In this document: positions 1,714-34,586 of the stretch, piece after piece
Position numbering within the stretch: the stretch's first letter is position 1
Layout of the letters: every line of letters begins with the position of its first letter
Sequence record: KC295538
Strand: one strand, 5' to 3'
DNA length: 64,000 nucleotides
DNA from: Escherichia phage PBECO4
Notes under the pieces: model-generated
Databases searched by the model: none
The model's input: only the letters and a program-made list of their open reading frames with translations
Told to the model about the DNA's origin: nothing
Program-made: the position numbers and the translations under genes

Positions 1714-2502
1714 TTAAATGTTAGTAGTATAGTACTTGATTTCGTTTTGAATTGCAAGTTCTATTTGTTTATTGAAAAGAATTCCAAACTCTTTGATTGA
1801 TTCACAATCGAATTCAATAGAAAAAGTATACTCTGGTATACGTACATTGTCAATACCCAAATACTCTTTTATGTAAATTTTAATGAGTTCACATAGTGCA
1901 GTACTAAGACATTGAATTTCAAAATGTTTTGCACCTTTGTCAAAATACTTGAATGCATCAATATCACCTACAATAAAACTATTCTTTAATGTAGTGAATA
2001 GGTTCTCAGGAAACACGGTAATAGGTGACATTGATTTAAGAATGTATGTATCTTTGGCATTCTTAATGTACTCAATGAAGCAGTAGTTAACGTCAGGCTC
2101 GATTGAACGATCCGCGTTATGATACCAGTGTTTAAACTCACTGTATTCAGCAAACTTATGCTGGCGTAATGCGTTACAATCTTCACACAGTGCAGTCATG
2201 TTCTCTTTATCATTACCGCCCTGAAGACAGTCAAGTACATTATGGTCTAACGTCATGCGTACAAGGCGTTTCCCTTTAAGTACATAAGGTCTGAATTTAT
2301 AACGTTCTTTAGTACTGTGCTTATGTAAAGTGAATACCACATTGGATTCACCACAACAATCACATTTAAAGCCATCACGTGACATTACATGAATGAGTTT
2401 TCGAGTATTTGGACCAAACTCTGATTTGGTAATGTTACCTACAATTTCTGATGGTTTGTAGTATTTTGAATTCCGGCGAATCAATTCATCTATAGTGCTC
2501 AT
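1714..2502 (-). CDS. HNH-family endonuclease (possible homing endonuclease)
   Basis: 262-aa ORF; Cys cluster CDCCGES then HNH-like motif DHNVLDCLQGGNDKENMTALCEDCN. Confidence 0.6.
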   Translation of the reverse strand: MSTIDELIRRNSKYYKPSEIVGNITKSEFGPNTRKLIHVMSRDGFKCDCCGESNVVFTLHKHSTKERYKFRPYVLKGKRLVRMTLDHNVLDCLQGGNDKENMTALCEDCNALRQHKFAEYSEFKHWYHNADRSIEPDVNYCFIEYIKNAKDTYILKSMSPITVFPENLFTTLKNSFIVGDIDAFKYFDKGAKHFEIQCLSTALCELIKIYIKEYLGIDNVRIPEYTFSIEFDCESIKEFGILFNKQIELAIQNEIKYYTTNI

Positions 2503-2503
2503 T

Positions 2504-2734
2504 TTATATTATTCCTTCTTTGTTACAACCTATAATTATTTTTGTAACTTCGATAACTCGTACCAAATGATATCCGTGAAAAAAGTTAAAACCATACATT
2601 TGTGCTAATGCATCGGCTTCAGATTTTGCACGGATACATGATAGATATAATTCTCGTATATCACCATCTAATGATGCTTGTTTCTCGTCATTGATAACAA
2701 TAGCACGAATCTCAAAACGAACACCATAACTCAT
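2504..2734 (-). CDS. hypothetical protein
   Basis: 76-aa ORF. Confidence 0.4.
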   Translation of the reverse strand: MSYGVRFEIRAIVINDEKQASLDGDIRELYLSCIRAKSEADALAQMYGFNFFHGYHLVRVIEVTKIIIGCNKEGII

Positions 2735-2940
2735 TTAGTTTGACCCACAATAAGTTTCTCTTTAGTATTACTATTGTAACACCACATTTGTTCTTTACTA
2801 ACTGTAATCCAAATATCTTTGTTTACTTGTTCGTATGTACTATCACGTAATGCAATGCATTGATTCATGGAATTCATTGGGGTTATTTGTACACCGGAAT
2901 TAACAGAAAAAGCTATTACTAAAAAGATTACTGAATTCAT
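2731..2940 (-). CDS. hypothetical secreted/membrane protein
   Basis: 69-aa ORF; hydrophobic N-terminus. Confidence 0.4.
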   Translation of the reverse strand: MNSVIFLVIAFSVNSGVQITPMNSMNQCIALRDSTYEQVNKDIWITVSKEQMWCYNSNTKEKLIVGQTK

Positions 2941-3557
2941 TGGATATTCCTTAATGGTTAATCATCCATCTCTTCGAGATGTCTGTTCGCTTCTAATACT
3001 ACGTATTCTACGCGAATGATTAATAACTGTCAAGGACTTTTAATATTGACGGGATTTGAGGAAGGGATTTTTCTTCCCCCCCACAAGGAGGGAAATTTGA
3101 CGCTGATGGTATCAGAGCTATTGCATTGAAGATTACTCATAACGAGTGCGAAAGCGGGTCATCCTGTTTCTCTCTACTTCAGTTTCATATGACGGTCTAC
3201 ACTTTTAAACATAGTGTATCTTCATTAAGTATCTATGCAATCAAATACTTAATGTGAGTACTCAAATTCTGGACGCAACTTTCCTGTACAAAATTTGATA
3301 ACTCTCCCTTAGATAATTCGTAAGGTGTTATCCTTATATGTCTATCAAGGAACCACCAGCTATCCTAACGTGGTTCTTTATACAGCCGCATTGCCGTGAG
3401 GGGTTCAAACTATGCCCACATCTAACGGGTTTCTTTTGCTGTTCGCACTGTCGGACTGCTCAACTGCCCTCTACGTTTTCGAGTGGATCAGGTACATGAA
3501 TATCATGCCAACAGAATTGTACAAGATAATTATATCACAAACTTTTACTTCATCCCA
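2941..3557. other. ORF-poor, locally GC-richer region; candidate structured RNA or regulatory region
   Basis: about 620 nt with no convincing ORF on the coding (minus) strand; composition visibly GC-richer than flanks; several short hairpins (e.g. gaaccac...gtggttc at 3347-3375). Confidence 0.3.
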
Positions 3558-3590
3558 TAAAAAAAGGTTGGCTTATGCCAACCTTTTTTC
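3558..3590. terminator. bidirectional intrinsic terminator hairpin
   Basis: aaggttggc-ttat-gccaacctt flanked by A-run and T-run; immediately 3' of sigma-factor gene. Confidence 0.6.
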
Positions 3591-3591
3591 T

Positions 3592-4557
3592 TTAGAAATC
3601 TTCGTATTCGTACCCTTTTGCAAGTACTAGCTTCTTAAGCTTTTGCATAGCTTCACTGTACTTTCGGTGTATTGATGAACGGGATTTAACATATTTTCCA
3701 TTATCATCAACAAAACCATTATCAGCAATCTCACGAAGCGTTTCAGGTTCATATTCACCTAGACCATGAACACGCTGGATAATCTCACGTTCTTTAGTAC
3801 TCAATTCGTTGGTCAGTTCATTGATAGCATAACGCAAAGGTGCACGGATACTATCAACATTGAGGTTAAAATCAGAAGCAGGTGAATGAATAATGTCACC
3901 TAATGTACCATCTGTAACACCGTCTAATGGTGCATCCAGCGAAGTGTATTCGCTTTGAAATAACAAACAATTATTAACATGCTGAATCTCAATCCCAGTA
4001 CCCTCTGAGATTATTTCAGGAGTTGGGCGAACACCATGTTTACGCATATATTCCTGACAGAATCTTTTTACTTTGATCTTATGAACACTCATATAACGTG
4101 GGAAGTGTACCATATAGTTAGCGTCAGAACTTTCGTTATAGACTGTCATGTAAATACTAGAAGAAGCATAGGTAATGAACTTAACATTCTTATTAAGATC
4201 AAAGGTTTTTAGTGCTCTCATGAACCCCTCAACACCATATGAAATCTTATCTTCAAATGGGATATAACAAGTACATTTACTTGCTACATCAATAATCAGT
4301 CCATAATTGTAACGAACTAACAGTTCAGTGTTTTTCTTTACATTGATACCAGCTTGAATATCACGAATTAGATCTTCATTGGAAACATTTGGTGGTCGCT
4401 TAAGTGTAATATTATATTTGAAACTGCTTTGTACTTTACCTTCATTTTCATCTTTATCTTCAACGAAATCTAAGGCTTCTAGTGTGTTGACTTCTTCATT
4501 AGCAAAACATTCATCCAGAACTTCTTCGGCAATTGTATTTAAATCAAGCTTTTTCAC
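3592..4557 (-). CDS. sigma-70 family RNA polymerase sigma factor
   Basis: 321 aa; region-2-like GVEGFMRALKTFDLNKNVKFITYASSSI and region-4-like HTH EREIIQRVHGLGEYEPETLREIADNGF...SRSSIHRKYSEAMQKL. Confidence 0.8.
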   Translation of the reverse strand: MKKLDLNTIAEEVLDECFANEEVNTLEALDFVEDKDENEGKVQSSFKYNITLKRPPNVSNEDLIRDIQAGINVKKNTELLVRYNYGLIIDVASKCTCYIPFEDKISYGVEGFMRALKTFDLNKNVKFITYASSSIYMTVYNESSDANYMVHFPRYMSVHKIKVKRFCQEYMRKHGVRPTPEIISEGTGIEIQHVNNCLLFQSEYTSLDAPLDGVTDGTLGDIIHSPASDFNLNVDSIRAPLRYAINELTNELSTKEREIIQRVHGLGEYEPETLREIADNGFVDDNGKYVKSRSSIHRKYSEAMQKLKKLVLAKGYEYEDF

Positions 4558-13087: not shown

Positions 13088-13532
13088 TAGTAACTCCTAT
13101 TTTTTTATATTTTAAAATTAAATCACTCACGGCTTTCATTAGCTTATATGGAATAGCTAACTCTTGAACAGTACTTTCCATAAAATGTTCTTCTTCTGTA
13201 TCATAAAATGTTGAACTATAGTGTTCACAATCATCTATACTATCATAAAAAGAAGACGTAAGTTTATCAACAATGACAGTGATTTGTTTGTCAGTTTTGG
13301 CACATCCTACCTGAACGGTTAATCCAATATCATCAGCCTCTACACGAATTATAAACGAATTATTAGTATAGTTCAGCCAACAATCTTCACCAAAGTATAC
13401 AACACTGTGTTTCTTCTGAAATGAAGTTGCGGTGTTAAGAACACCAATAACAACATCAACTGTTTTTTCATTTAAAATATTAGACATTTTTATTCCTGCT
13501 TCGTATGTTTCGTGAAATCTCAAATATTCCAT
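13077..13532 (-). CDS. EExxFxQxST-motif family paralog
   Basis: C-terminal TEEEHFMESTVQE. Confidence 0.55.
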   Translation of the reverse strand: MEYLRFHETYEAGIKMSNILNEKTVDVVIGVLNTATSFQKKHSVVYFGEDCWLNYTNNSFIIRVEADDIGLTVQVGCAKTDKQITVIVDKLTSSFYDSIDDCEHYSSTFYDTEEEHFMESTVQELAIPYKLMKAVSDLILKYKKIGVTNAI

Positions 13533-13908
13533 TCAACTGCTCAACAGTTAAACCCTGTAAATCGTAAACTGTTGATAGTTGAAAGAACATCTCTGAATCT
13601 ATAGTATCATGTTCAATTGGAAGACTCAAGAGGTCTTTATTAATAAAATAATCATATGTTCGAATTGTCAAAGAATCACCAAAGATATCAATGTAAAATT
13701 TCGGAACATTATGTAACGAAACATCTATTAATATGTTTTCAGCATATCTACACGAAATTTTAGAATTATTTTTATAAGATTGGTATGAAAAATTATAAGG
13801 TTCATCGACCAATGTGTATGATGAGGTATCACCTTCGGAAAATATTACACCACATTCAATAAGATGTGTTAACGACTTAGGTGGAATTTTTAACATTTCA
13901 CTTCCCAT
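13480..13908 (-). CDS. EExxFxQxST-motif family paralog
   Basis: C-terminal DSEMFFQLSTVYDLQGLTVEQL. Confidence 0.55.
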   Translation of the reverse strand: MGSEMLKIPPKSLTHLIECGVIFSEGDTSSYTLVDEPYNFSYQSYKNNSKISCRYAENILIDVSLHNVPKFYIDIFGDSLTIRTYDYFINKDLLSLPIEHDTIDSEMFFQLSTVYDLQGLTVEQLNGIFEISRNIRSRNKNV

Positions 13909-14326
13909 CCTTACTCATATTACTACGGATCACCCCACTAAGAAAACATATTTTCCTTAATGTATCATAACTGATATTTGTAAGATCATGTACAAAATTC
14001 AACTGCAAGTACATTTCTTCAGTTAATTGATTAAATGTATCATCAACATGAATGTTAGTATGTTCCGTTATATCTATTTCTATATTATTTTCCCAAATAT
14101 CAATGCTAACAGCATAGTCTGATGTATGTCTGGATTGAACTGAAATAAAAATATTATTACTGTTGTATAATGTCTCTGTGTATCCATTCAAAAATGATCC
14201 AACGACAACATCAAAAATGCCATCTCTAATTGGGTTTTTTGTTTCAAACGTATCACTACAAACTTGACGGTATACAATGTCAACATACTTATCAATTAAA
14301 GTAAACAAATAACTCATTGCATTCAC
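13898..14326 (-). CDS. EExxFxQxST-motif family paralog (diverged)
   Basis: C-terminal LTEEMYLQLNFVHDLTNISYDTL. Confidence 0.5.
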   Translation of the reverse strand: MNAMSYLFTLIDKYVDIVYRQVCSDTFETKNPIRDGIFDVVVGSFLNGYTETLYNSNNIFISVQSRHTSDYAVSIDIWENNIEIDITEHTNIHVDDTFNQLTEEMYLQLNFVHDLTNISYDTLRKICFLSGVIRSNMSKDGK

Positions 14327-14334
14327 CTATATAA

Positions 14335-14366
14335 GAAAAAAGGCCGATTCATCGAATCAGCCTTAA
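14335..14366 (-). terminator. intrinsic terminator-like hairpin
   Basis: ggccgattc-atc-gaatcagcc (one mismatch) followed by T-run on minus strand; lies 9 nt upstream of next gene start. Confidence 0.45.
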
Positions 14367-14551
14367 GTATAACACAGTAGAAGTTAAAAAGTCAACTTCT
14401 AAATTACAGCATCCAAGAGGAATAAAAAGATACTGTTAGAGGGTAACGAATATAATGAATTTGAGGGTAATATCATTATACGTAAAAAAGTGATAGCTTC
14501 TATACATAAGGAGGAATCAGTACTGACTAGAAGCTATCGGGTTAAACGATT

Positions 14552-14836
14552 TCAGTACTGAGTGTTTAGTTTAGGATGAGTATTTCCATCTTCGATTTGT
14601 TTTATAATCGAGTCACGAATTTCTACTGCCCCTTGATAACTATATTTATCTTTTGGGAACACCCATGTATATTCGCCATCAGTGGTTTTAAAATCAATAC
14701 ATGGATTATCCCTGTATTCAGATGCAATGATTGCAATAACATGTAATGAATTCAATGAATGATTTGTATAAGGATAATTATTATTATCTCTGAACGTGAA
14801 TGTTTTAAGTTCATCAGGTGCAACAATGAATTCCAT
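14552..14836 (-). CDS. hypothetical protein
   Basis: 94-aa ORF. Confidence 0.5.
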   Translation of the reverse strand: MEFIVAPDELKTFTFRDNNNYPYTNHSLNSLHVIAIIASEYRDNPCIDFKTTDGEYTWVFPKDKYSYQGAVEIRDSIIKQIEDGNTHPKLNTQY

Positions 14837-15027
14837 TATTCATCCTCGTACTTCTTGAATGGTGGAACATCTACCTTGAAGTCTTTGCACATCTTAGTTG
14901 TACGAACTTCAGTATTGTTGTGATAATTTTTCTTAAATTCATAAGAAACATAATTACGAATACCAGGTGTATGAATAATAGCAAGAACCAATGTACGACC
15001 AAACAAGCATAATAAATTCCAGAACAT
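14836..15027 (-). CDS. hypothetical small membrane protein
   Basis: 63-aa ORF; hydrophobic N-terminus. Confidence 0.4.
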   Translation of the reverse strand: MFWNLLCLFGRTLVLAIIHTPGIRNYVSYEFKKNYHNNTEVRTTKMCKDFKVDVPPFKKYEDE

Positions 15028-15036
15028 ATGAATCTC

Positions 15037-15402
15037 CTAATTGTGGGTTTTAACCAAACGTGAGACAGCTAGTATAGCATTAACCTCATCCAATGTCAAC
15101 CCACCAATGTCATTAATCATTGAGTACTGAAATAGTGATTCTTCAGTGTAATGGTAATCATGAGAAGCAATAAAGATTGCTGGTTTAGAGGCATCCAAAA
15201 TTATCTTTGTCATTGTACTATATATATCAAATTGATATAATAGATTTTCACCTGTATATGCTACGTAGATATTATTTGAATAGGCTGGATGTACCATTGT
15301 AAAACCATCATAACATAATATTTTTATGTTCGGATCGTCAAAATTGCCTGTATAAAGGTTATTACAAACATCTTGCATTATACGTACTATTAGACTAGTC
15401 AT
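15037..15402 (-). CDS. EExxFxQxST-motif family paralog
   Basis: C-terminal YTEESLFQYSMINDIGGLTLDEV. Confidence 0.55.
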   Translation of the reverse strand: MTSLIVRIMQDVCNNLYTGNFDDPNIKILCYDGFTMVHPAYSNNIYVAYTGENLLYQFDIYSTMTKIILDASKPAIFIASHDYHYTEESLFQYSMINDIGGLTLDEVNAILAVSRLVKTHN

Positions 15403-15820
15403 TTAATGGATTTAGTACCTCTTCTGGAATCAACTTTTGAACTTTAAGTATAGCTTTAATGTCCTCAAATGTTAATCCTAATGTGTCGTTAAGGAGGCAG
15501 TACTGGAAGAATTTTTCTTCAGTATCAATATCGTTAACATTCAATTCAATTGATTCATCATCATAATCATAATCTTCATTATCACATTCATAACTTCTGA
15601 ATATAACTTTTTCAAAATACACATCAAATGAATAAAAATGATTATTGAATTCATAACCAAGAAAAATATTAAAACATTTACTCAAATCTGTGGTTTGATT
15701 CAAATCTGGATCATAGCAAAATACTCTAACTTCACCAATATCTTCTAATTGTACATCATGCAGTGACCATGCGTTGTTTTTTAATACATAGTTCACCATT
15801 TTAACAATGTTGTATGTCAT
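15395..15820 (-). CDS. EExxFxQxST-motif family paralog
   Basis: C-terminal DTEEKFFQYCLLNDTLGLTFEDI. Confidence 0.55.
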   Translation of the reverse strand: MTYNIVKMVNYVLKNNAWSLHDVQLEDIGEVRVFCYDPDLNQTTDLSKCFNIFLGYEFNNHFYSFDVYFEKVIFRSYECDNEDYDYDDESIELNVNDIDTEEKFFQYCLLNDTLGLTFEDIKAILKVQKLIPEEVLNPLND

Positions 15821-15826
15821 AGTGTA

Positions 15827-15916
<90 letters not shown>

Positions 15917-26891: not shown

Positions 26892-27024
26892 TCACGTAGG
26901 TCAATCTTTTCTACTGACCCACCGAGCACTAGATAGTGAAAATTAGAATCTTTGTTTGCCATATTCAAAAGATCTGCTTTCTGTTGAAGCGTAAAGCGTG
27001 AAGTACTGTTACGTACTGGCATAG

Positions 27025-27468
27025 TTACTCCTTAAAGTAGATATCACGAATTTGTTTAATCATCTCTAACTCTTGAAGTCCTATCATACCAAAGTCTTCT
27101 TGTATTGTCAACTGCTGAAAGTACATTTCTTCTAAATTATTGTACGGAATCTCAACAAGATTCAAAGGCTCACTTTCCACACGATAAATTGTATCTTGTA
27201 CATCATGTTTTTCGATATGAATACTAAATGTATCTTTTTGAATTCTAAATTTATAAAATGTTTGATTTGTTGTAAACAAACCAACTTTAGGATGGAATCC
27301 CATTTGAATACACAAACAATCTTCATCCTTATATTTCAAGTATATAGCTTTTGACGTTGCTAGTACTTTAGATTTTGGGAAATAAAAATCACCCATCAGC
27401 TTCTGACGTTTCCAGTCCTCATATACAACTGGATGCTTAACCTTCTTCAATTGGTGCAGTACTGTCAT
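27025..27468 (-). CDS. EExxFxQxST-motif family paralog
   Basis: C-terminal NNLEEMYFQQLTIQEDFGMIGLQEL. Confidence 0.55.
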   Translation of the reverse strand: MTVLHQLKKVKHPVVYEDWKRQKLMGDFYFPKSKVLATSKAIYLKYKDEDCLCIQMGFHPKVGLFTTNQTFYKFRIQKDTFSIHIEKHDVQDTIYRVESEPLNLVEIPYNNLEEMYFQQLTIQEDFGMIGLQELEMIKQIRDIYFKE

Positions 27469-27848
27469 AGTTTTTTCCAGTCCAATGAATCGAAATCGAT
27501 TTGTTCAGGATTATCAACAGCGACAACTCGTGCATTATGAAGAGTTTCAAAGTAGCCGTTCCACGGTGTACGTACTGGAATTTTTTCATCTCCAATTTTT
27601 ACAAAGAAAGAGAATTCACATGACATTGGATCAAACCATTCTTTATGTTTGGCTTCATCGATTATTGTCGCACGTTCGTTACTATATGCATCATCGAGTT
27701 TCTTAAAGAATACCCAATGCTCTTTCAAAGACTGTAATGCTACAACTGCCTCATCCTTTGATTCCCATTGAACATCCAATGTATTGGTAACTGAATCTTC
27801 AGTTTCAGTGTCCCCTGTAGTGTAATGTACTTCAATGCTGTATTTCAT
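27465..27848 (-). CDS. hypothetical protein
   Basis: 127-aa ORF. Confidence 0.5.
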   Translation of the reverse strand: MKYSIEVHYTTGDTETEDSVTNTLDVQWESKDEAVVALQSLKEHWVFFKKLDDAYSNERATIIDEAKHKEWFDPMSCEFSFFVKIGDEKIPVRTPWNGYFETLHNARVVAVDNPEQIDFDSLDWKKL

Positions 27849-28303
27849 TAATCATCGCCTTTTAGTAATTTACAAATTTCAATCATATGATAATAACATG
27901 TATTCCAAAATTGTCCATTAGTACTTCCAACATCATGCACAGTACTTTGTTGGAAAACATATTCATCGTTGAACATCATTTTAATATCATCAATGTAAAA
28001 TTCTGGTTTTGAATCATTATTGTATTCAATACTCGTTTCACCATCTGGATCAAGTGAAATTGATGATATGTCGTGAATTCCTCTCGGATTTGTTGGATAA
28101 ATTCTCAACGTAAGAGGATAGAAGTCTGGATCGGTTTCATAAGTATATTCGATTATGTAATAACCATCACCAGTAATTGATTGATATTTAAATGTAGTTT
28201 CAATTGAATTTGAGATGTTAAATCCCAGTTTCTTTATCTCATCTACATGAGATAATATTTTATGTAAAGTTCCTAAAACATGAATCAAATTATCAATTTT
28301 CAT
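27848..28303 (-). CDS. EExxFxQxST-motif family paralog
   Basis: C-terminal FNDEYVFQQSTVHDVGSTNGQF. Confidence 0.55.
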   Translation of the reverse strand: MKIDNLIHVLGTLHKILSHVDEIKKLGFNISNSIETTFKYQSITGDGYYIIEYTYETDPDFYPLTLRIYPTNPRGIHDISSISLDPDGETSIEYNNDSKPEFYIDDIKMMFNDEYVFQQSTVHDVGSTNGQFWNTCYYHMIEICKLLKGDD

Positions 28304-28842
28304 TTACGAACCTTTGAAAAGTTTAGTTTAAAAGATTTACCAAATTCCATTGTAGCTTTACCCAGATTGTTAATATTTTCCTTTAACATTTCTTGCATCT
28401 TATTCATACTTTCAATCCAAGCTTCTTCTTCGATACGAAGAATTGGTCGCAATCGTTCCTGAATATCGATAAAACGTGTATTGAGTTCTACTAATGATTC
28501 ATATGTGAAATCTTTCATGTCGATAATAGTACTTCGTTGAAAGAATTCTTCTTCGGATAAATTACTTAAAATGATTTTATCACGACCAATAGATAATGTC
28601 AATTCATCATCTTTATTTTTTTTAATTACAATACTAACAGGTGTTTTTAATGTAATGCAAATATCATGATTATTAAATGTTTCAGTTTGGTTTGACATTC
28701 TGAATTGAAGTTTCCCAGATAAAGCATGTACTGGTGATGGTTTCTTTTTACCAGTAATAACATCTTCCCATGAATCGAGAATATTATTAATAATTTTAAC
28801 ATAAGGAATTGGCATATATGCACCTATGAAAAATCCACGCAA
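28300..28842 (-). CDS. EExxFxQxST-motif family paralog with C-terminal extension
   Basis: LSEEEFFQRSTIIDMKDFTYESL then about 60-aa tail. Confidence 0.55.
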   Translation of the reverse strand: MRGFFIGAYMPIPYVKIINNILDSWEDVITGKKKPSPVHALSGKLQFRMSNQTETFNNHDICITLKTPVSIVIKKNKDDELTLSIGRDKIILSNLSEEEFFQRSTIIDMKDFTYESLVELNTRFIDIQERLRPILRIEEEAWIESMNKMQEMLKENINNLGKATMEFGKSFKLNFSKVRK

Positions 28843-28857
28843 TGCGTGGATTTGTAA

Positions 28858-29388
28858 TTATTCAAGTATAGTAATTTCAATTAAACGAATTTCGATAAAC
28901 TCGTTTTCAGTTTCCCATGACGTGCCAAATTTCTTTTCAAGTTCAGATTTCACATCACTTTTAAATTTTCCCATAGTATTAGGAATAATTTGTTTGGTTA
29001 ATTTGTCGTAACCACAATAAAACATAGGTTTCTCCCTTCGAGATATTAGCTGAACAAAATCTTTTGGATATGCAGGTATGTTATGCATCACTTCATGAAT
29101 ACACTCAGTACTTGAATCTTGTACTTTGTACATTACATTAAGTTTACCTCTGAAATTTGCGGTCATATCAACAATAGTTCCTTTACCCGATTTAAGTAAA
29201 GTTCCATTCTTTGAATGAGAGCAATAAAATACCTCATCACCAATATTAGGATAATACAAATTAAATTCTAATTCAGATTTTACAGCCAGCCGTTTGAAAC
29301 TTTCTGTACGTTTTATATAAGTTTGGTATTTGTTTATGTTCAAAAGAATATCTCTCTTAGTAAATGTGATATAACTGGCATAGTCCAT
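28858..29388 (-). CDS. hypothetical protein
   Basis: 176-aa ORF. Confidence 0.5.
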   Translation of the reverse strand: MDYASYITFTKRDILLNINKYQTYIKRTESFKRLAVKSELEFNLYYPNIGDEVFYCSHSKNGTLLKSGKGTIVDMTANFRGKLNVMYKVQDSSTECIHEVMHNIPAYPKDFVQLISRREKPMFYCGYDKLTKQIIPNTMGKFKSDVKSELEKKFGTSWETENEFIEIRLIEITILE

Positions 29389-30200
29389 CCATTCCCAAGC
29401 ATTTTGTATGCTTGTGTCTTACTAGACACTTTAAAGAAATCTTCAGGAACACCCTGTAATTTACAACATTCTACTACACTTAAGTGTCTATAGTCAATAT
29501 TTCTTTTGCCATTCTCTAATAGATATTGACGACTGATCACTGGGTCACGAAACACCAATTGTCGTCTGGATTTATTAAAGTACTGGTTACAATCACCACC
29601 TTTAAAATAGTTAGCATCTATACAGTACGAAGCGGTTCTGTCAGTGTACCAACCATCTTCAATAATATCTTGAAGTTTAGGTGCATTGGATAATGCAGGT
29701 GGTATAAAAAGCTTATCAGTACTGTACCAGTAATATCTCTGCCTGAAGTGAGGCGTATAATGCTGGGAGTTTATCAGTACTGGCGTGATTCCTAAAATAC
29801 TATTAATGTATTCTTTGAAATCTTCTTTCATTTTAACATTTTCAAACAGAAATTTCAAGTTAGGATTAAGACTTTTGATATGATCAAAAATTTCAACCAT
29901 TACTAAAAATAACTGCCCACGTATATCATTTAAACCACCCTGTTTACCTGCTACTGACCAGGCTTGGCATGGGAAACCACCCATTAATAAATCTATTTTG
30001 TCCCACTCAATATCCCATTCTCTCCACTTAGTTACATCACCCAATTGGATAATATCAGGAAAGTTAGATTGAGATTCAGCTATTGCGTACTTATCAATTT
30101 CGGATGAATAATATTTTTCAACTGGGATACCAGCATCTTGCAATGCCATATATCCCACACTCATTCCATTAAAAAGAGAAAGTACTCGGATAGGTTTCAT
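29340..30200 (-). CDS. DNA (cytosine-5)-methyltransferase
   Basis: 286 aa; motif I LSLFNGMSVG, motif IV GGFPCQAWS, ENV motif LFENVK, QxRxR-like FRQRYYW. Confidence 0.85.
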   Translation of the reverse strand: MKPIRVLSLFNGMSVGYMALQDAGIPVEKYYSSEIDKYAIAESQSNFPDIIQLGDVTKWREWDIEWDKIDLLMGGFPCQAWSVAGKQGGLNDIRGQLFLVMVEIFDHIKSLNPNLKFLFENVKMKEDFKEYINSILGITPVLINSQHYTPHFRQRYYWYSTDKLFIPPALSNAPKLQDIIEDGWYTDRTASYCIDANYFKGGDCNQYFNKSRRQLVFRDPVISRQYLLENGKRNIDYRHLSVVECCKLQGVPEDFFKVSSKTQAYKMLGNGWTMPVISHLLREIFF

Positions 30201-30252
30201 ATAAAATCCTTTTTATATTGTTAAGGTACTATAATATATTATAGCATCTTAT

Positions 30253-30543
30253 TTAGAAATCTTCCAAACTTTTTTCATCACACCATCGTGATGTACAGAT
30301 GATTGCAGATGCCAGAATTGAAGCACTTGCACGTCCTCCACCGAGTAAGTACTGGCTAATTACGCCAATCATATTGAACACTTTATCATACTCGGTTAGT
30401 TGTTCAAAACCTTTCTTCCAATGCTGATATTCTTCTTCTGTGACATTAAACTCACCATCAAGTTCCTTTAAAATCTTTTTAAGCACAGCACTATGTTCAC
30501 TCATCATCATCTCCATATCGTTCGTCATAAAAATCATCATCAC
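30253..30543 (-). CDS. hypothetical protein
   Basis: 96-aa ORF. Confidence 0.45.
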   Translation of the reverse strand: MMMIFMTNDMEMMMSEHSAVLKKILKELDGEFNVTEEEYQHWKKGFEQLTEYDKVFNMIGVISQYLLGGGRASASILASAIICTSRWCDEKSLEDF

Positions 30544-30582
30544 GATCTAATGGTTCTTTTGGCTTTTCAGACATATATTTCC

Positions 30583-30843
30583 TCACATGGTAAAGGTATT
30601 ATCACCATCCATATCTTCATCAGTTGCTTCAGCTAATGTCTTGATTGTAAGTAATCCACGCTTCACGTACAACATGAAGACCTTTTCATAATTACCAAAC
30701 ATAATCTCAGGTGACATGTAATTCTCTGTTACAATGACGATTGGACGGCCCTGTGAAAGCATACGAAACATAGTACGATATTTGTCAAATGTGCGAAATT
30801 CATCCATGTTCATCATGTGGCGTTTACGAACTACTTTAGTCAT
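30583..30843 (-). CDS. hypothetical protein
   Basis: 86-aa ORF. Confidence 0.45.
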   Translation of the reverse strand: MTKVVRKRHMMNMDEFRTFDKYRTMFRMLSQGRPIVIVTENYMSPEIMFGNYEKVFMLYVKRGLLTIKTLAEATDEDMDGDNTFTM

Positions 30844-30857
30844 CTTAATACCTTTAG

Positions 30858-31298
30858 TTAATTGAACTCTACTTCTGGATAATGATTATAGAACATCTCA
30901 CGAACTGCGTCAAGATGTTCTTGAAATTGTTTTATATCTTCTAATGATGGTGCATCAATAACAGTGCTAAGTTGAAACAACGATTCTTCTGTGTTATATA
31001 GTGACATATCAAATGAGTTATTGTTGTCATCAGTTATGATATTATCACAAATTTCGTATGTGTCAATACAAACATCATCAAGTGTTGTATTATCATATAC
31101 AGTGTATACGAATACAAAAATAAAAGAAGAATGTTCTTTACCATAACGCGGTGGGTCATATGTCACATAGCATTTGTGGTCAAATGTATCGAGTTCCATA
31201 GACACCACCCCAGCTTCACGATATTCATTAGTTTCACTGGTAAGATCCGGTATTGATGTTATCGAAAGTAAGTGGAGAAATTTACTTGGATTTAGCAT
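30858..31298 (-). CDS. EExxFxQxST-motif family paralog
   Basis: C-terminal YNTEESLFQLSTVIDAPSLEDI. Confidence 0.55.
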   Translation of the reverse strand: MLNPSKFLHLLSITSIPDLTSETNEYREAGVVSMELDTFDHKCYVTYDPPRYGKEHSSFIFVFVYTVYDNTTLDDVCIDTYEICDNIITDDNNNSFDMSLYNTEESLFQLSTVIDAPSLEDIKQFQEHLDAVREMFYNHYPEVEFN

Positions 31299-31753
31299 TT
31301 CACCACCATTGGATTTTGCGACTGTATATTAAAAAGGGATAATACAAAAGTACTCAATTTTTCGAAACAATCTATTAATACATTTAACTCATCATAACTA
31401 ACACCAATTTCACGAATAAGCGATTGTTGAAAGAATCCTTCTTCGGTTAACGTTAAACTACTAACCTCAGTTATGTTATAATAACTTTGGGATGTTGTGG
31501 TTGATATTATTTGTATTGCAATCGTATCTGATGTTGTGTTGTACAGATATAAATATTTTGTTTTTCTTTCCAATGGATCTATACATGAAAGATCGATCAT
31601 GTCATAGGTTTTTCCAATAAAAATATTACAATCATCTGACAATTCACAACAAATGCGTATATGTTCTTTCGGGTCATGAACACGTTGTGTGTCAAATTCA
31701 CATGACATTGCAATTTCAAAATGATTTTTTATTTCGTCAACATTCATCTGCAC
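31292..31753 (-). CDS. EExxFxQxST-motif family paralog
   Basis: C-terminal LTEEGFFQQSLIREIGVSYDEL. Confidence 0.55.
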   Translation of the reverse strand: MQMNVDEIKNHFEIAMSCEFDTQRVHDPKEHIRICCELSDDCNIFIGKTYDMIDLSCIDPLERKTKYLYLYNTTSDTIAIQIISTTTSQSYYNITEVSSLTLTEEGFFQQSLIREIGVSYDELNVLIDCFEKLSTFVLSLFNIQSQNPMVVKC

Positions 31754-32121
31754 CCACCATTAATTCTTATATTTGTATAGTTTAATGCTTTTTTAATAAT
31801 ACCAATTTCTGTAATTCCTATTACATTTTTCTCAATCAATGACAATTGGAATAGTTCCTCTTCGGAAATATCAATACTGTGAATTCTTGTACAATAATCG
31901 TTGAAGTCATATACATATCGTATTGTATAGTCGTTTATAGAAACTGATACAATTGCAATCCCATCATGGATGTAAGTTAGTTCATTTGAGTATCTATTAA
32001 AAATTAACCTATCTGGTGAACCTAATGGTAGTTGAAATGTATTTCTAGTATCTTGAACAATAACAAAATCATCATCTATATTTTTACTCAGAACACCCAA
32101 AATATCATATATAGTAGTCAT
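31744..32121 (-). CDS. EExxFxQxST-motif family paralog
   Basis: C-terminal ISEEELFQLSLIEKNVIGITEI. Confidence 0.55.
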   Translation of the reverse strand: MTTIYDILGVLSKNIDDDFVIVQDTRNTFQLPLGSPDRLIFNRYSNELTYIHDGIAIVSVSINDYTIRYVYDFNDYCTRIHSIDISEEELFQLSLIEKNVIGITEIGIIKKALNYTNIRINGGCR

Positions 32122-32122
32122 G

Positions 32123-32527
32123 TTATTCTTTACCTTCAGCAGTTCTGATAATTTTCATAACTTCTCTGGATAGTGCGTATATTTTTTTATAGTACTCAAA
32201 TGTAACTGAACCAAAATCATTAATAGTACTAGCCATGAAGAACGATTCTTCTGTATATAGTTCATTTGACAAAGCAACCAGTTCTTGGTGAAATTTTGCG
32301 TCCTTCCAATAACGAAATTCAAAAACAAATTGTCCGTCATGACCGACTCTACAACATTCAGAACGATCACTGTCTACACAGCTAAACACAATATCCCTTT
32401 CAGAGTCGTACCAGATATTTCCAATATTTGTTTCAATAACAGCATAATCAATTTTTTTAGAATTTGGAATTAAACCTTTTTTCACCAGCACTAAACTGGT
32501 ATTGTCAATATCTAGTAAACTTACCAT
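32123..32527 (-). CDS. EExxFxQxST-motif family paralog
   Basis: C-terminal YTEESFFMASTINDFGSVTFEY. Confidence 0.55.
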   Translation of the reverse strand: MVSLLDIDNTSLVLVKKGLIPNSKKIDYAVIETNIGNIWYDSERDIVFSCVDSDRSECCRVGHDGQFVFEFRYWKDAKFHQELVALSNELYTEESFFMASTINDFGSVTFEYYKKIYALSREVMKIIRTAEGKE

Positions 32528-32528
32528 A

Positions 32529-32939
32529 TCAATTCCTCATTACTAAAGTGTTTTTAATCTCTAACAATTCACTATACATCTTCTTGAATTGTAATATATC
32601 TTCAAAAGTAATACCACCAAGATCATCAACTAATGAACGTTGGAATAAAGATTCACTTGTTTGTAATGTATCTAAATCGGTGATTTTTAATAAAGAACTT
32701 GGATTAAGTGTTTCGACTAGTAGTATGTTTTTGTATGGTACATATGTGATCTTGATGTTCTTTTTATAATTAATCTTATAAAATCGCATAATTGACGATT
32801 CATCACTTAGTTGGATAATTGGGTCGTCTTGATCATTAGACCACCATACAGTACTAGTCATATGATTGACGTGGTGGTTCAATTCTGATATGTCCAAATC
32901 TAAAAAATATTTTAGTTCATTGTGTAAATCTAAACTCAT
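32529..32939 (-). CDS. EExxFxQxST-motif family paralog
   Basis: C-terminal QTSESLFQRSLVDDLGGITFEDI. Confidence 0.55.
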   Translation of the reverse strand: MSLDLHNELKYFLDLDISELNHHVNHMTSTVWWSNDQDDPIIQLSDESSIMRFYKINYKKNIKITYVPYKNILLVETLNPSSLLKITDLDTLQTSESLFQRSLVDDLGGITFEDILQFKKMYSELLEIKNTLVMRN

Positions 32940-32993
32940 AATTTATCCTCAATGCAGCATCATCATGTATTGTAGGATAAACCCACAATAATG

Positions 32994-33389
32994 TCAAGAT
33001 GTGAAATAATTATACCAGTAATATAGTTCTTTTAATTCTTCAGTACTGAACAATACTTCTTCTATTGTAGATTGTTGAAAGTGATATTCATCATTTAGAT
33101 ACATAGAAATATTACTATATACTTTCCTATTGTATTGACATAAAAAAGAAGTTTTTTGATTAATGTATTCAGTAAATGTTAATTTATCTAACTCAATATC
33201 GAATGATAATTTAATAATATGAGTATTATCATTTACATACATTAGTTTCTTTGAAAAATGATCAATTGTAATATATTCTTTATGAGAGAACTGAAATATA
33301 TTATTAAATTTATTACCATTTGTGCTTCTAAATTTTTCAAGGTAATAAGAAAGTGGTTTAATTATTGAAGTTCCAATATTGTTCTTCAT
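32994..33389 (-). CDS. EExxFxQxST-motif family paralog
   Basis: C-terminal NDEYHFQQSTIEEVLFSTEEL. Confidence 0.55.
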   Translation of the reverse strand: MKNNIGTSIIKPLSYYLEKFRSTNGNKFNNIFQFSHKEYITIDHFSKKLMYVNDNTHIIKLSFDIELDKLTFTEYINQKTSFLCQYNRKVYSNISMYLNDEYHFQQSTIEEVLFSTEELKELYYWYNYFTS

Positions 33390-33408
33390 ATATCCTCAAT
33401 TTTAGATA

Positions 33409-33433
33409 AGAAAAATGCCCCGAAGATCGGGGC
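33409..33433 (-). terminator. intrinsic terminator-like hairpin
   Basis: gccccg-aagat-cggggc preceded on plus strand by A-run (T-run on minus). Confidence 0.45.
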
Positions 33434-33549
33434 AGTACTAAAATGATTTTGTACCAAAAGGGGAATAAGAACAAAATGAAAATATAATAACGCATCATTA
33501 TTATGTAAGGGAGGAAAGTAACATGATATGTTAACCATTTCTGGTATAT

Positions 33550-34101
33550 TTATTTATCATTTAATTCTTTAAGTTGGGTTTGTATATCTTTAGTTATATT
33601 TCGAATTTTCTTAAAGCAATAAACACTATCGTCCAATTCGATTTTAAGTTCATGTGTAAATGCATACAGAAGTTCAGCAAATACTAAATCTTGACGCATC
33701 CAGTTTCCATCTTTATATAAAGTCATTACACAATATGGGCATTCACTATTAGAAGTTTGCTTTCCAATAAAAACACTTTGAATTGATTCATGCTTAAAGC
33801 CAATAAAACTTTCATTTATTTTTTTAATTTCAGTACTGATATCGAATTTAGCACTGGTGTTGATTGCAAAAATTTTATTCCCACTTTCATCAGTATTGAT
33901 ATTGAGTTCAATATCACTACCTAGTTTACGTACTGCTAGAGTATAAAGAAGTAATTCATACATGTCGTAACTTGTTACATTACCATTTGGTGCAATTACA
34001 TCAACACTAACACCGTGCATTTTTACTTCTGTATTAAATCCATCTTTATCAGAAAGAAAATCAGTGATTTGCTTTGTAAGGATTTTAATTTGGTCTATCA
34101 T
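33550..34101 (-). CDS. hypothetical protein
   Basis: 183-aa ORF. Confidence 0.5.
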   Translation of the reverse strand: MIDQIKILTKQITDFLSDKDGFNTEVKMHGVSVDVIAPNGNVTSYDMYELLLYTLAVRKLGSDIELNINTDESGNKIFAINTSAKFDISTEIKKINESFIGFKHESIQSVFIGKQTSNSECPYCVMTLYKDGNWMRQDLVFAELLYAFTHELKIELDDSVYCFKKIRNITKDIQTQLKELNDK

Positions 34102-34121
34102 ATTTCATTTCCTTATGTGAT

Positions 34122-34147
34122 AAAAGCCTCCATTATGGAGGCTTTTG
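34122..34147. terminator. intrinsic terminator hairpin (possibly bidirectional)
   Basis: aaagcctcc-attat-ggaggcttt with flanking A/T runs. Confidence 0.55.
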
Positions 34148-34154
34148 TATTTAC

Positions 34155-34583
34155 TTAGAGAGATTCTTCGTATTCAGCAACAATCCCAACCATTTCATTA
34201 ATGAACTTGATGTGAGAATGTGTCACTGTACGGAAGTCGTAAACAAGTGACTGTTGGAAAAATACATCTTCATCAAGAGAACCATCAAAGTTCAAATCAA
34301 TGTTTTCATCGTCATTGCTTGGTGCAACTTTAATATTCAGAAGATTTTCATCAACTGCAAGTTTTACAACACAACCCAGTGCAATGGCAAGAACATATGC
34401 TGGTTTCTTAGCTTTTTCATTACGGAATGGTGCACGTAGAGCACAAAAAGTACTGCTAATCTCATCATTTGGTTCTTTGTATTTAACATTGACCATTAGT
34501 TCTTCGATTTTGACGCTCTCAATAACACGACCAGTTTCTGGAGCGAAGAAAGAATGTTCACGGATAGTTTGTTCGATATTCAT
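34155..34583 (-). CDS. EExxFxQxST-motif family paralog
   Basis: C-terminal SLDEDVFFQQSLVYDFRTVTHSHI. Confidence 0.55.
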   Translation of the reverse strand: MNIEQTIREHSFFAPETGRVIESVKIEELMVNVKYKEPNDEISSTFCALRAPFRNEKAKKPAYVLAIALGCVVKLAVDENLLNIKVAPSNDDENIDLNFDGSLDEDVFFQQSLVYDFRTVTHSHIKFINEMVGIVAEYEESL

Positions 34584-34586
34584 ATA

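Follow-up and report, generated by a model that had tools for sequence, protein, structure and literature searches.

A compact, DNMT3-like orphan cytosine-C5 methyltransferase gene in the Rak2-like jumbo phage PBECO4

The methyltransferase gene and its conserved motifs

The 64,000-nucleotide stretch of Escherichia phage PBECO4 analyzed here (record KC295538; hereafter the window) carries on its minus strand a complete coding sequence at positions 29340 to 30200, which runs from an ATG to a stop codon and encodes a protein of 286 amino acids. This protein matches PF00145 with an E value of 7.5e-38 (131.2 bits against a cut-off of 22), passes the TIGR00675 dcm model (119.2 bits; cut-off, 100.65), and hits the PHROGs family phrog_116, labeled "DNA methyltransferase" (E value of 5e-60); these model scores, together with motifs IV, I, VI, VIII, IX, and X, place it in the cytosine-C5 methyltransferase superfamily. 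An AlphaFold2 model of the enzyme has a pLDDT of 93.2 and a pTM of 0.90. The first-pass annotation, made from the nucleotide sequence, had called a C5-cytosine DNA methyltransferase at this locus, and the Pfam match falls on exactly the open reading frame (ORF) that it named.

The characteristic motifs are all present, and we scored their invariance over 40 homologs. Motif I, which binds SAM (LSLFNGMSVG, residues 7 to 16; positions 30153 to 30182, minus strand), aligns with SLFDGIATG of DNMT3 and has invariant F10, G12, and S14; it reads F10-N-G12-M-S14, with serine in place of the last glycine of FxGxG, a variant of the DNMT3 type (compare FDGIATG). Of the three motifs listed in the first-pass annotation, PCQ and ENV are thus found as written and a literal FxGxG is not. 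Motif II corresponds to E34 and motif III to G54-D55. Motif IV (GGFPCQAWS, residues 74 to 82; 29955 to 29981, minus strand) holds the catalytic nucleophile Cys78, which is invariant together with P77, and motif VI (FENV, residues 119 to 122; 29835 to 29846, minus strand) contains the invariant E120-N121-V122, whose glutamate has a counterpart in characterized enzymes such as M.HhaI that protonates N3 of the target cytosine. Motif VIII (FRQRYYW, residues 152 to 158; 29727 to 29747, minus strand) has invariant R153 and R155. Motifs IX (YRHLSVVECCKLQGVP, residues 237 to 252) and X (LGNGWTMPV, residues 268 to 276) span positions 29373 to 29492 on the minus strand and align to LGRSWSVPVIRHL of DNMT3; R238 of motif IX and G269-N270-G271 of motif X (LGNGW, residues 268 to 272) are invariant. 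Disruption of the catalytic motifs, which would have spoken against the original call, was looked for on reinspection, and all of them are intact and invariant in the 40 homologs.

Between motifs VIII and IX lies the target-recognition region (about residues 160 to 236; 29493 to 29723, minus strand), which at about 75 to 77 amino acids is as short as first described; the protein as a whole is as large as a DNMT3 catalytic domain. It contains a family-conserved core, SYCIDANYFKGGDCNQYFNKSRRQ (residues 191 to 214; 29559 to 29630, minus strand), that is kept in the RaK2, CBB, and phi92 orthologs and in which C193, A196, Y198, K200, K210, R212, and R213 are invariant across the 40 homologs. The ORF at 29340 to 30200 is an intact, stand-alone DNA cytosine-C5 methyltransferase gene. 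The region just upstream (30201 to 30267, minus strand), examined by sequence reading and a consensus scan, contains a sigma-70-like extended -10 promoter candidate (TTGGAA-18-TGcTATAAT, 30267 to 30238) and an AGGA ribosome-binding site 8 nucleotides ahead of the ATG; promoter-like sites are no more numerous here than in shuffled sequences, so this promoter is a candidate only.

Relationship to DNMT3 and other C5 enzymes

To what was already known of this gene, our analysis adds that its closest solved relatives, by sequence as well as by fold, are the catalytic domains of DNMT3A, DNMT3B, and DNMT3C, which have a similarly short target-recognition region. The best 50 Foldseek matches in the PDB were all DNMT3A/B/C methyltransferase domains (TM scores of 0.75 to 0.80), and DNMT3 ranked first both in sequence comparison (E value of 3e-23 over the full length) and in profile comparison (E value of 4e-36). 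The likeness extends to the size of the catalytic domain (about 285 amino acids), the F-D/N-G-x-S/A form of motif I, the tryptophan after G-x-x in motif X, and the short target-recognition domain, but identity is only about 27%, and the N-terminal PWWP and ADD domains of the DNMT3 family are absent from the phage protein, which consists of the methyltransferase domain alone. Moreover, the lead of DNMT3 over M.HhaI is modest at the profile level (128 versus 113 bits), and no conserved equivalents of the CpG-reading residues of DNMT3A (R836 and N838 in the loop of the target-recognition domain) were aligned, in a part of the alignment that is of low confidence.

The classical type II C5-methyltransferases M.HhaI (GCGC) and M.HaeIII (GGCC) and the E. 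coli enzyme Dcm share with the phage protein the ten-motif catalytic core and the presumed mechanism, but the type II enzymes differ in having a partner endonuclease and a longer, unrelated target-recognition domain. Single-sequence matches to M.HhaI reach only the N-terminal 124 amino acids of the phage enzyme, and the model of the Dcm subfamily (CCWGG; NF007772) gives 21.4 bits against a cut-off of 710. A GGCC target, as implied by the label "haeIIIM" in the Sharanji and slurp01 records, was considered and set aside, since that label is an automatic best-hit name and M.HaeIII (E value of 7e-18) falls below DNMT3; readers of existing records should take neither the "HaeIII" nor the "Dcm" label carried by some of them as supported. 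A role as a tRNA cytosine-38 methyltransferase was likewise rejected, DNMT2 and tRNA methyltransferase chains matching with E values of 4e-10 to 1e-6 versus 3e-23 for DNMT3, as was an inactive, DNMT3L-like role, given that the catalytic motifs are intact. M.MpeI, a CpG methylase of solved structure, is a much weaker match (E value of 2e-12 in profile comparison). M.SssI (CpG), M.CviPI (GpC), and the TET-associated GpC[C/T] enzymes of phages are likewise orphan enzymes borne by viruses or elements, whose recognition regions are small and whose targets are presumably short, but the TET-associated enzymes differ in that no TET or glycosyltransferase partner lies near the PBECO4 gene.

Phage identity, orthologs, and genomic neighborhood

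Compared with Escherichia phage UB, the window shows 99.8% identity, and the phage is an Asteriusvirus of the 121Q/PBECO4/UB type, that is, a Rak2-like jumbo myovirus and not a T-even phage; the contrast with hydroxymethylcytosine and glucosylation that had been drawn for this locus is therefore moot. The enzyme is the same as AXC36673.1 of phage UB, encoded by a gene in which about one of 861 bases is changed, and as gp91 of 121Q. An identical public protein (P0001) carries the name DNA cytosine methyltransferase, and the annotation as a (putative) DNA-cytosine methyltransferase is present in UB, 121Q, phAPEC6, and many others, amounting to dozens of Asteriusvirus genomes. Protective DNA methylation has already been proposed in the papers describing phAPEC6, RaK2, and CBB, so that both the gene and its presumed protective role are known and in print.

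Orthologs in the Rak2-like phages UB, 121Q, phAPEC6, fEgEco12, CBB, and RaK2 share the length, motifs, and syntenic position of the PBECO4 gene, which in Asteriusvirus, RaK2, and CBB lies downstream of clamp-loader and metallopeptidase genes. Protein identity is 95% to fEgEco12 g455, 76% to CBB gp399, and 64 to 66% to RaK2 gp194. The Asteriusvirus copies show no difference of substance from the PBECO4 gene, whereas RaK2 gp194 has PCT in place of PCQ and an 8-amino-acid insertion after the catalytic loop. At the DNA level the fEgEco12 ortholog is 91.9% identical, with only 13 amino acid changes against about 70 nucleotide changes, and by this comparison the gene is under strong purifying selection. 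The wider family is carried by phages and mobile elements and numbers more than 8000 homologs. The relatives in A4 and TH47 differ from the PBECO4 gene, which has no intein, in carrying one at Cys78: in the A4 ortholog it sits exactly between P77 and C78 and includes a LAGLIDADG domain, and the TH47 match is split at the same residue. The UE-S1 and ph0011 matches are also split.

No partner nuclease was found among the 10 flanking ORFs (five on each side), in agreement with the absence of an adjacent restriction endonuclease reported at first reading; these ORFs had no Pfam match above threshold and matched only PHROGs of unknown function, and PADLOC returned no match for five of them (two downstream and three upstream). 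The gene therefore lacks the adjoining cognate endonuclease that defines a type II restriction-modification system. An EExFFQQS(T/L)I-type motif recurs at the C termini of the neighboring small ORFs, in keeping with the earlier description of a paralog array. When every ORF in 346 kb (the UB loci and the 64-kb window) was searched by profile, no second C5-methyltransferase emerged, making this the sole such ORF in the sequence examined, also a new observation; the other methylase in the genome belongs to the Dam family (PF05869). A scan of bacterial genomes recovered 80 loci encoding homologs with 32 to 59% identity, and those whose contexts were inspected lie in arrays resembling prophages or in conjugative elements (topoisomerase, TraJ, VirB8, primase, PolB, and SNF2 helicases). 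None of the 10 neighbors tested beside these bacterial homologs was a restriction enzyme, and inference of the target from restriction-modification linkage was thus fruitless.

We also looked for other pathways of cytosine modification. No dCMP hydroxymethylase or glucosyltransferase is annotated in the examined parts of UB (346 kb of 353 kb), the same absence is stated in the RaK2 and CBB papers, and the only thymidylate-synthase-family protein of UB passes the thyA equivalog cut-offs; a dCMP deaminase is also encoded. The phage thus does not have the hydroxymethylcytosine and glucosylation genes of T-even type cytosine replacement, and this gene content suggests that no competing cytosine modification pathway operates. 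In described phage clusters of C5-methyltransferase and TET genes, the TET gene lies within five genes and the methyltransferases are specific for GpC-type di- or trinucleotides (PMC8256090); the PBECO4 locus does not resemble such a cluster, since no TET/JBP, glycosyltransferase, or other tailoring domain was detected in the ten flanking ORFs (five on each side).

Target site and biological role

Cleavage by ClaI and NruI is blocked by m5CpG (supplier and REBASE tables), SexAI is sensitive to Dcm methylation, and HindIII is sensitive to m5C. Virion DNA of fEgEco12, whose ortholog is intact and 95% identical, was reported to give ClaI, NruI, SexAI, and HindIII patterns "identical to those predicted," which implies that the tested contexts are unmethylated, that not every CpG is methylated, and that virion methylation may be sparse or absent. 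The RaK2 paper, in contrast, describes resistance to methylation-sensitive enzymes and 5mCpG detected by bisulfite treatment ("data not shown"), and gp194, the ortholog of the PBECO4 methyltransferase, is the only candidate C5 enzyme of RaK2; as a guide to PBECO4 this report is weakened by the different catalytic loop of gp194. The published hints on the target are thus in conflict: the recognition sequence may include CG, in line with the RaK2 paper, yet methylation at every CpG is excluded, and the short target-recognition region suggests a short site. In a genome of the UB type, ClaI has about 85 sites and NruI has 7. GCGC is wholly absent from the window, the UB loci, and the RaK2 (41 kb) and CBB samples, and it was rejected as a self-protective target because the genome does not contain it. 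Given that 5mC is reported in RaK2 virions, at least the RaK2 ortholog would methylate phage DNA at sites other than GCGC. Literature searches for methylome or activity data on Asteriusvirus, phi92-like, and jumbo phages returned only annotation-level statements, and in the BASEL study resistance to restriction showed no simple correlation with the methyltransferase genes of phages.

The reading we favor, and regard as rather probable, is that the gene encodes an active orphan SAM-dependent C5 methyltransferase, compact and DNMT3-like, that protects phage DNA from host restriction. The enzyme would consist of a Rossmann catalytic domain and a target-recognition region of about 75 amino acids, and its gene, like the small genes of the surrounding block, would be transcribed leftward and may have an extended -10 promoter of its own. 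In the mechanism typical of these enzymes, the target cytosine would be flipped out, Cys78 would attack C6, and C5 would receive a methyl group from SAM. A short motif with a cytosine would thereby be marked on phage DNA during replication and, inevitably, on the DNA of the host; the marked sites would then resist restriction enzymes of the Enterobacterales hosts. The analysis establishes that the gene is intact, conserved, and under purifying selection, and it establishes the family, the fold, and the orphan status of the enzyme, whereas catalytic activity, phage DNA as substrate, and protection are inferred. The lack of a cognate nuclease points to an anti-restriction orphan methylase, which may work alongside the Dam-family adenine methylase and the strong genomic avoidance of certain sites. 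The anti-restriction strategy put forward in the first-pass annotation therefore stands as the most plausible function but is not a new idea, protective methylation having been published before. The nucleases McrBC, McrA, and Mrr, which attack 5mC-containing DNA, are present in E. coli K-12 MG1655, the strain used to isolate several Asteriusviruses, and heavy R-mC methylation would be costly in this strain unless the phage counters it.

A dinucleotide CpG methylase, a counterpart of DNMT3 and M.SssI that blankets all CpGs of the phage and blocks many restriction enzymes at once, would agree with the DNMT3 enzymes being the closest solved relatives with an equally short target-recognition domain, and with the 5mCpG and the resistance to CpG-methylation-sensitive enzymes reported for RaK2. 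CpG is depleted in the genome (observed/expected ratio of 0.74) with an excess of TpG/CpA (1.23), and the palindromes ACGT, TCGA, and CGCG are barely avoided (0.89 to 0.92), unlike GATC (0.50) and CATG (0.67). However, the CpG deficit and TpG excess, which we considered as evidence on the target and set aside, are nonspecific and weak in CBB, where the CpG ratio is 0.93 with a 76% identical ortholog; R836 and N838 do not align with conserved equivalents (in the low-confidence part of the alignment); in K-12 hosts some 4100 RCG sites would be turned into half-sites for McrBC; and ClaI and NruI cut fEgEco12 DNA as predicted. On balance we consider blanket CpG methylation unlikely. Methylation as the first step of a hypermodification, in which 5mC is converted to 5hmC by a TET/JBP dioxygenase and then glycosylated, has a general precedent in the phage C5-methyltransferase/TET clusters of GpC specificity, but the ten flanking ORFs encode no such partner, whereas in the clusters described TET lies no more than five genes away (PMC8256090), the genomes were sequenced and digested normally, and the cutting of fEgEco12 DNA by HindIII, whose AAGCTT site contains GCT, argues against GpC[C/T] methylation; this scheme is hardly credible.

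Host DNA or a few regulatory sites could instead be the main substrate, with the enzyme serving host takeover or the epigenetic timing of phage genes and not genome protection. fEgEco12 virion DNA behaves as unmethylated at all sites tested, the gene sits among small genes, presumably early ones, downstream of a candidate promoter of the host type, and GCGC, a frequent C5 target of the HhaI type, is missing from the phage, so that an enzyme of this type would touch host DNA only. Against this, virion DNA of RaK2, GCGC-free in the sample, is reported to contain 5mC, and orphan methylases of phages and conjugative elements are generally read as anti-restriction devices; we judge such a role quite improbable. 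Still less probable is that the gene is a nonfunctional or dispensable passenger, either a relic or a landing pad for selfish elements. The fEgEco12 digests without sign of methylation and the interrupted A4 gene, together with the split matches in TH47, UE-S1, and ph0011, could be taken in its favor, but the catalytic residues are all intact and invariant, amino acid changes relative to fEgEco12 are few beside nucleotide changes, and orthologs have been kept across three phage genera. Inteins splice out and typically occupy functionally constrained sites, so the intein itself speaks for function.

It is conceivable, if doubtful, that the enzyme belongs to a family of more than 8000 homologs that is the counterpart of the DNMT3 catalytic domain in prokaryotic viruses and recognizes a CpG-centered site of only 2 to 3 bases, in which case the ClaI and NruI result in fEgEco12 would reflect flank preferences or incomplete methylation. 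If so, PBECO4 would encode a natural, single-domain CpG-type methylase of 286 amino acids, a possible compact tool for epigenome editing and a clue to the origin of DNMT3. Knowledge of the target site would help to predict the restriction systems that limit Rak2-like jumbo phages, themselves candidates for therapeutic use, and would indicate whether this huge DNMT3-like family of enzymes from phages and mobile elements uses very short sites.

DNMT3-like architecture of the methyltransferase

The minus-strand ORF at window positions 29340 to 30200 encodes, from ATG to stop, a 286-amino-acid protein, and its limits coincide exactly with those proposed in the first-pass annotation. The protein matches the Pfam C-5 cytosine DNA methylase family (E value of 7.5e-38; 131 bits against a cutoff of 22), scores over the cutoff of the NCBIfam dcm superfamily model, and matches PHROG 116, "DNA methyltransferase" (E value of 5e-60). 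It contains a full set of canonical C5-methyltransferase motifs, comprising motifs I (LSLFNGMSVG), II (E34), III (G54-D55), IV (GGFPCQAWS, with the nucleophile Cys78), VI (FENV), VIII (R153/R155), IX (R238), and X (LGNGW). Re-inspection for disruption found all catalytic motifs intact and their residues invariant across an alignment of 40 homologs reaching down to ∼50% identity; the predicted enzyme keeps every catalytic residue. The Dcm-type motifs first described therefore stand for PCQ and ENV, but motif I is F-N-G-M-S and not literally FxGxG, a variant also seen in DNMT3 enzymes (FDGIATG in DNMT3).

Among solved structures, sequence comparison places the DNMT3C, DNMT3A, and DNMT3B catalytic domains nearest; they align over the full length (E value of ∼3e-23), while M.HhaI and M.HaeIII match at ∼1e-17, M.HhaI over the N-terminal half only. 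A family profile keeps this DNMT3-first order, albeit with a modest margin (128 bits for DNMT3B versus 113 bits for M.HhaI). With a confident AlphaFold2 model of the methyltransferase (pLDDT of 93.2, pTM of 0.90) as the query, the 50 best PDB matches from Foldseek were all DNMT3 methyltransferase domains (TM scores of 0.75 to 0.80, ∼27% identity). The target-recognition region had been described as short, and this is borne out: the interval between motifs VIII and IX spans ∼77 amino acids, as short as that of DNMT3 and shorter than those of M.HhaI and M.HaeIII, with a strongly conserved core (SYCIDANYxKGG..QYxxKSRRQ). The protein is thus best placed in the C5-methyltransferase superfamily, its architecture being DNMT3-like. 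We rejected its classification as a true DNMT3, as the DNMT3 regulatory domains are absent and CpG specificity is only a possibility; nor is the resemblance new, since "DNMT3A" is a routine label for phage genes of this kind in KEGG-based pipelines.

The family is very large, with >8,000 homologs at E values below 1e-10, and its members occur in phi92-like phages, ICP1, phages of Vibrio, Bacteroides, and Cellulophaga, and many others. Bacterial homologs (32 to 59% identity) were found in Glaciecola, Proteus, Gilliamella, Zophobihabitans, Bacteroides, and other genomes in prophage-like or conjugative-element contexts, adjoining genes for topoisomerase, TraJ/VirB8, primase, PolB, and SNF2-helicase, and no restriction enzyme was present among the ten neighbors tested. 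These surroundings indicate a family of orphan methylases spread by prophages and conjugative elements.

Source phage and gene neighborhood

Window positions 27000 to 33000 share 99.8% identity with Escherichia phage UB and 96 to 99% with phAPEC6, SP27, 121Q, G17, Sharanji, and others, and the annotation of UB (record positions 257061 to 321060) matches the ORF coordinates of the window, including the CDS at 29340 to 30200. UB is an Asteriusvirus, a Rak2-like jumbo myovirus of ∼350 kb, and because it is not a T-even phage, the contrast initially drawn with T-even hydroxymethylcytosine and glucosylation does not apply. Its thymidylate synthase passes the thyA equivalog thresholds, a dCMP deaminase is also encoded, and no hydroxymethylase or glucosyltransferase is annotated in the 346 of 353 kb of its genome examined; the RaK2 and CBB authors likewise found no hydroxymethylcytosine/glucosylation route. 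The first interpretation was therefore right in part but rested on a wrong phage premise. The feature itself is already known and annotated: the UB counterpart (AXC36673.1) is a "putative DNA methyltransferase," an identical protein in a public collection is named DNA cytosine methyltransferase, and the phAPEC6, CBB, UE-S1, and RaK2 papers already mention an enzyme of this C5-cytosine type, with protection by methylation as its suggested role. Only the methylation target and the GCGC-free genomes described below might repay experiments.

The gene lies within an array of small minus-strand paralogs (∼27025 to 34586; ORFs of 125 to 180 amino acids), which is real, as a C-terminal motif of the EExFFQQS(T/L)I..D.G type recurs in several neighboring ORFs. 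At the BLAST level, a second paralog cluster links ORFs at 13483 to 15829 with 32126 to 32942; all PHROG matches of both groups lack functional annotation. The reported lack of an adjacent restriction endonuclease was confirmed for the five flanking ORFs on each side (products of 86 to 180 amino acids): none of the ten gave a Pfam match over threshold, their PHROG matches were to families of unknown function only, and the five run through PADLOC had no match. A family-profile search covering 346 kb (the UB loci together with the window) found no other C5-methyltransferase ORF, and the other methylase of the genome is a Dam-family adenine enzyme (PF05869).

Just 5' of the methyltransferase ATG are an AGGA ribosome-binding site and, as a candidate promoter only, a TTGGAA-18-TGcTATAAT element; shuffled sequence yields promoter-like matches at least as often as this region does. 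The last 49 nt of the CDS (29340 to 29388) overlap the next ORF downstream (28858 to 29388) at its annotated start; that ORF may start further downstream or be translationally coupled to the methyltransferase. A perfect 10-bp inverted repeat, AAATCCACGC-AAT-GCGTGGATTT, at 28831 to 28853 falls in the gap between ORFs 28300 to 28842 and 28858 to 29388 and could form a hairpin, terminator-like or operator-like, beyond the methyltransferase gene pair on its downstream side.

Methylation target, site avoidance, and proposed role

Evidence from relatives on the methylation target conflicts. The RaK2 authors reported, as data not shown, that no enzymes cut the DNA except those unaffected by Dam, Dcm, CpG, and EcoKI methylation and that bisulfite analysis detected 5mCpG, and the positional ortholog gp194 is the sole candidate C5 enzyme of that phage. 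UB-type genomes carry ∼85 ClaI sites and 7 NruI sites. Both enzymes are blocked by m5CpG (supplier and REBASE tables), SexAI is blocked by Dcm methylation, and HindIII is blocked at AAGm5CTT. Virion DNA of fEgEco12, which encodes an intact ortholog with 95% identity, nevertheless gave ClaI, NruI, SexAI, and HindIII patterns as predicted from sequence, and given the number of ClaI and NruI sites a block would have shown plainly. Blanket CpG methylation by the Asteriusvirus enzyme is therefore very unlikely, as are CCWGG, AGCT, and GpC[C/T] specificities. The genome composition (CpG O/E of 0.74, TpG/CpA O/E of 1.23) is compatible with CpG methylation but non-specific, and CpG O/E in CBB is 0.93. 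The RaK2 enzyme differs in its catalytic loop (PCT plus an 8-amino-acid insertion) and may have a different specificity.

The genomes also show strong site biases. GCGC is absent from the 64-kb window (26.9 ± 4.7 expected from dinucleotide-preserving shuffles), from the 346 kb examined (∼150 expected; z = -17), and from 41-kb samples of RaK2 and CBB, an absence not mentioned in the RaK2 or CBB papers. By contrast, site numbers are as expected in phi92 (37 in 35 kb) and in PA5oct, a more distant Pseudomonas relative (19 in 25 kb). That phages infecting three host genera have lost it completely suggests strong clade-wide selection, which could come from an enzyme family widespread in hosts or from a GCGC-directed nuclease encoded by the phage and sparing the phage's own DNA. 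GTAC is over-represented 1.4- to 1.6-fold in UB-type, RaK2, and CBB samples (380 versus 277 expected in the window; z = +23 over 346 kb), an excess not seen in phi92 or PA5oct. GATC is depleted to ∼0.5 despite the Dam-family methylase, and CCGG (0.64), CATG (0.67), and CCSGG (0.41) are also depleted.

A protective orphan-methylase role is most likely, in which the SAM-dependent enzyme would methylate phage DNA at a short cytosine-containing motif as it replicates and so blunt some host restriction systems, working alongside the Dam-family methylase and genomic site avoidance. Blanket CpG methylation, a host-directed or regulatory role, and TET-coupled hypermodification are less likely rival readings, and a further unlikely one holds the gene to be a dispensable relic. 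Syntenic orthologs occur in three genera (Asteriusvirus, Alcyoneusvirus RaK2 at 64 to 66% identity, and Mimasvirus CBB at 76%), and the fEgEco12 ortholog differs at ∼8% of nucleotides yet at only 13 of 286 residues, a disparity that indicates purifying selection. Several Asteriusviruses were isolated on K-12 MG1655, which carries McrBC, McrA, and Mrr, a caveat to heavy methylation of their DNA.

An intein at the catalytic cysteine of some orthologs

In phage A4 (ON286972.1), the ortholog is a single 632-amino-acid ORF (positions 1732 to 3630 of the A4 locus, plus strand) interrupted by a 346-amino-acid Hint/LAGLIDADG intein, which separates motif IV precisely at the step from Pro77 to the catalytic Cys78 (junctions GGFP/CFPAG...VVHN/CQAWS). 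It contains Hint_2, LAGLIDADG_3, and Intein_splicing domains, begins with Cys, and ends with His-Asn followed by Cys at +1. The match in TH47 (MT446416.1) breaks at this residue too, and those in UE-S1 and ph0011 are likewise split. The methyltransferase gene of the window is intein-free, which makes this allele a potential homing site for the intein.
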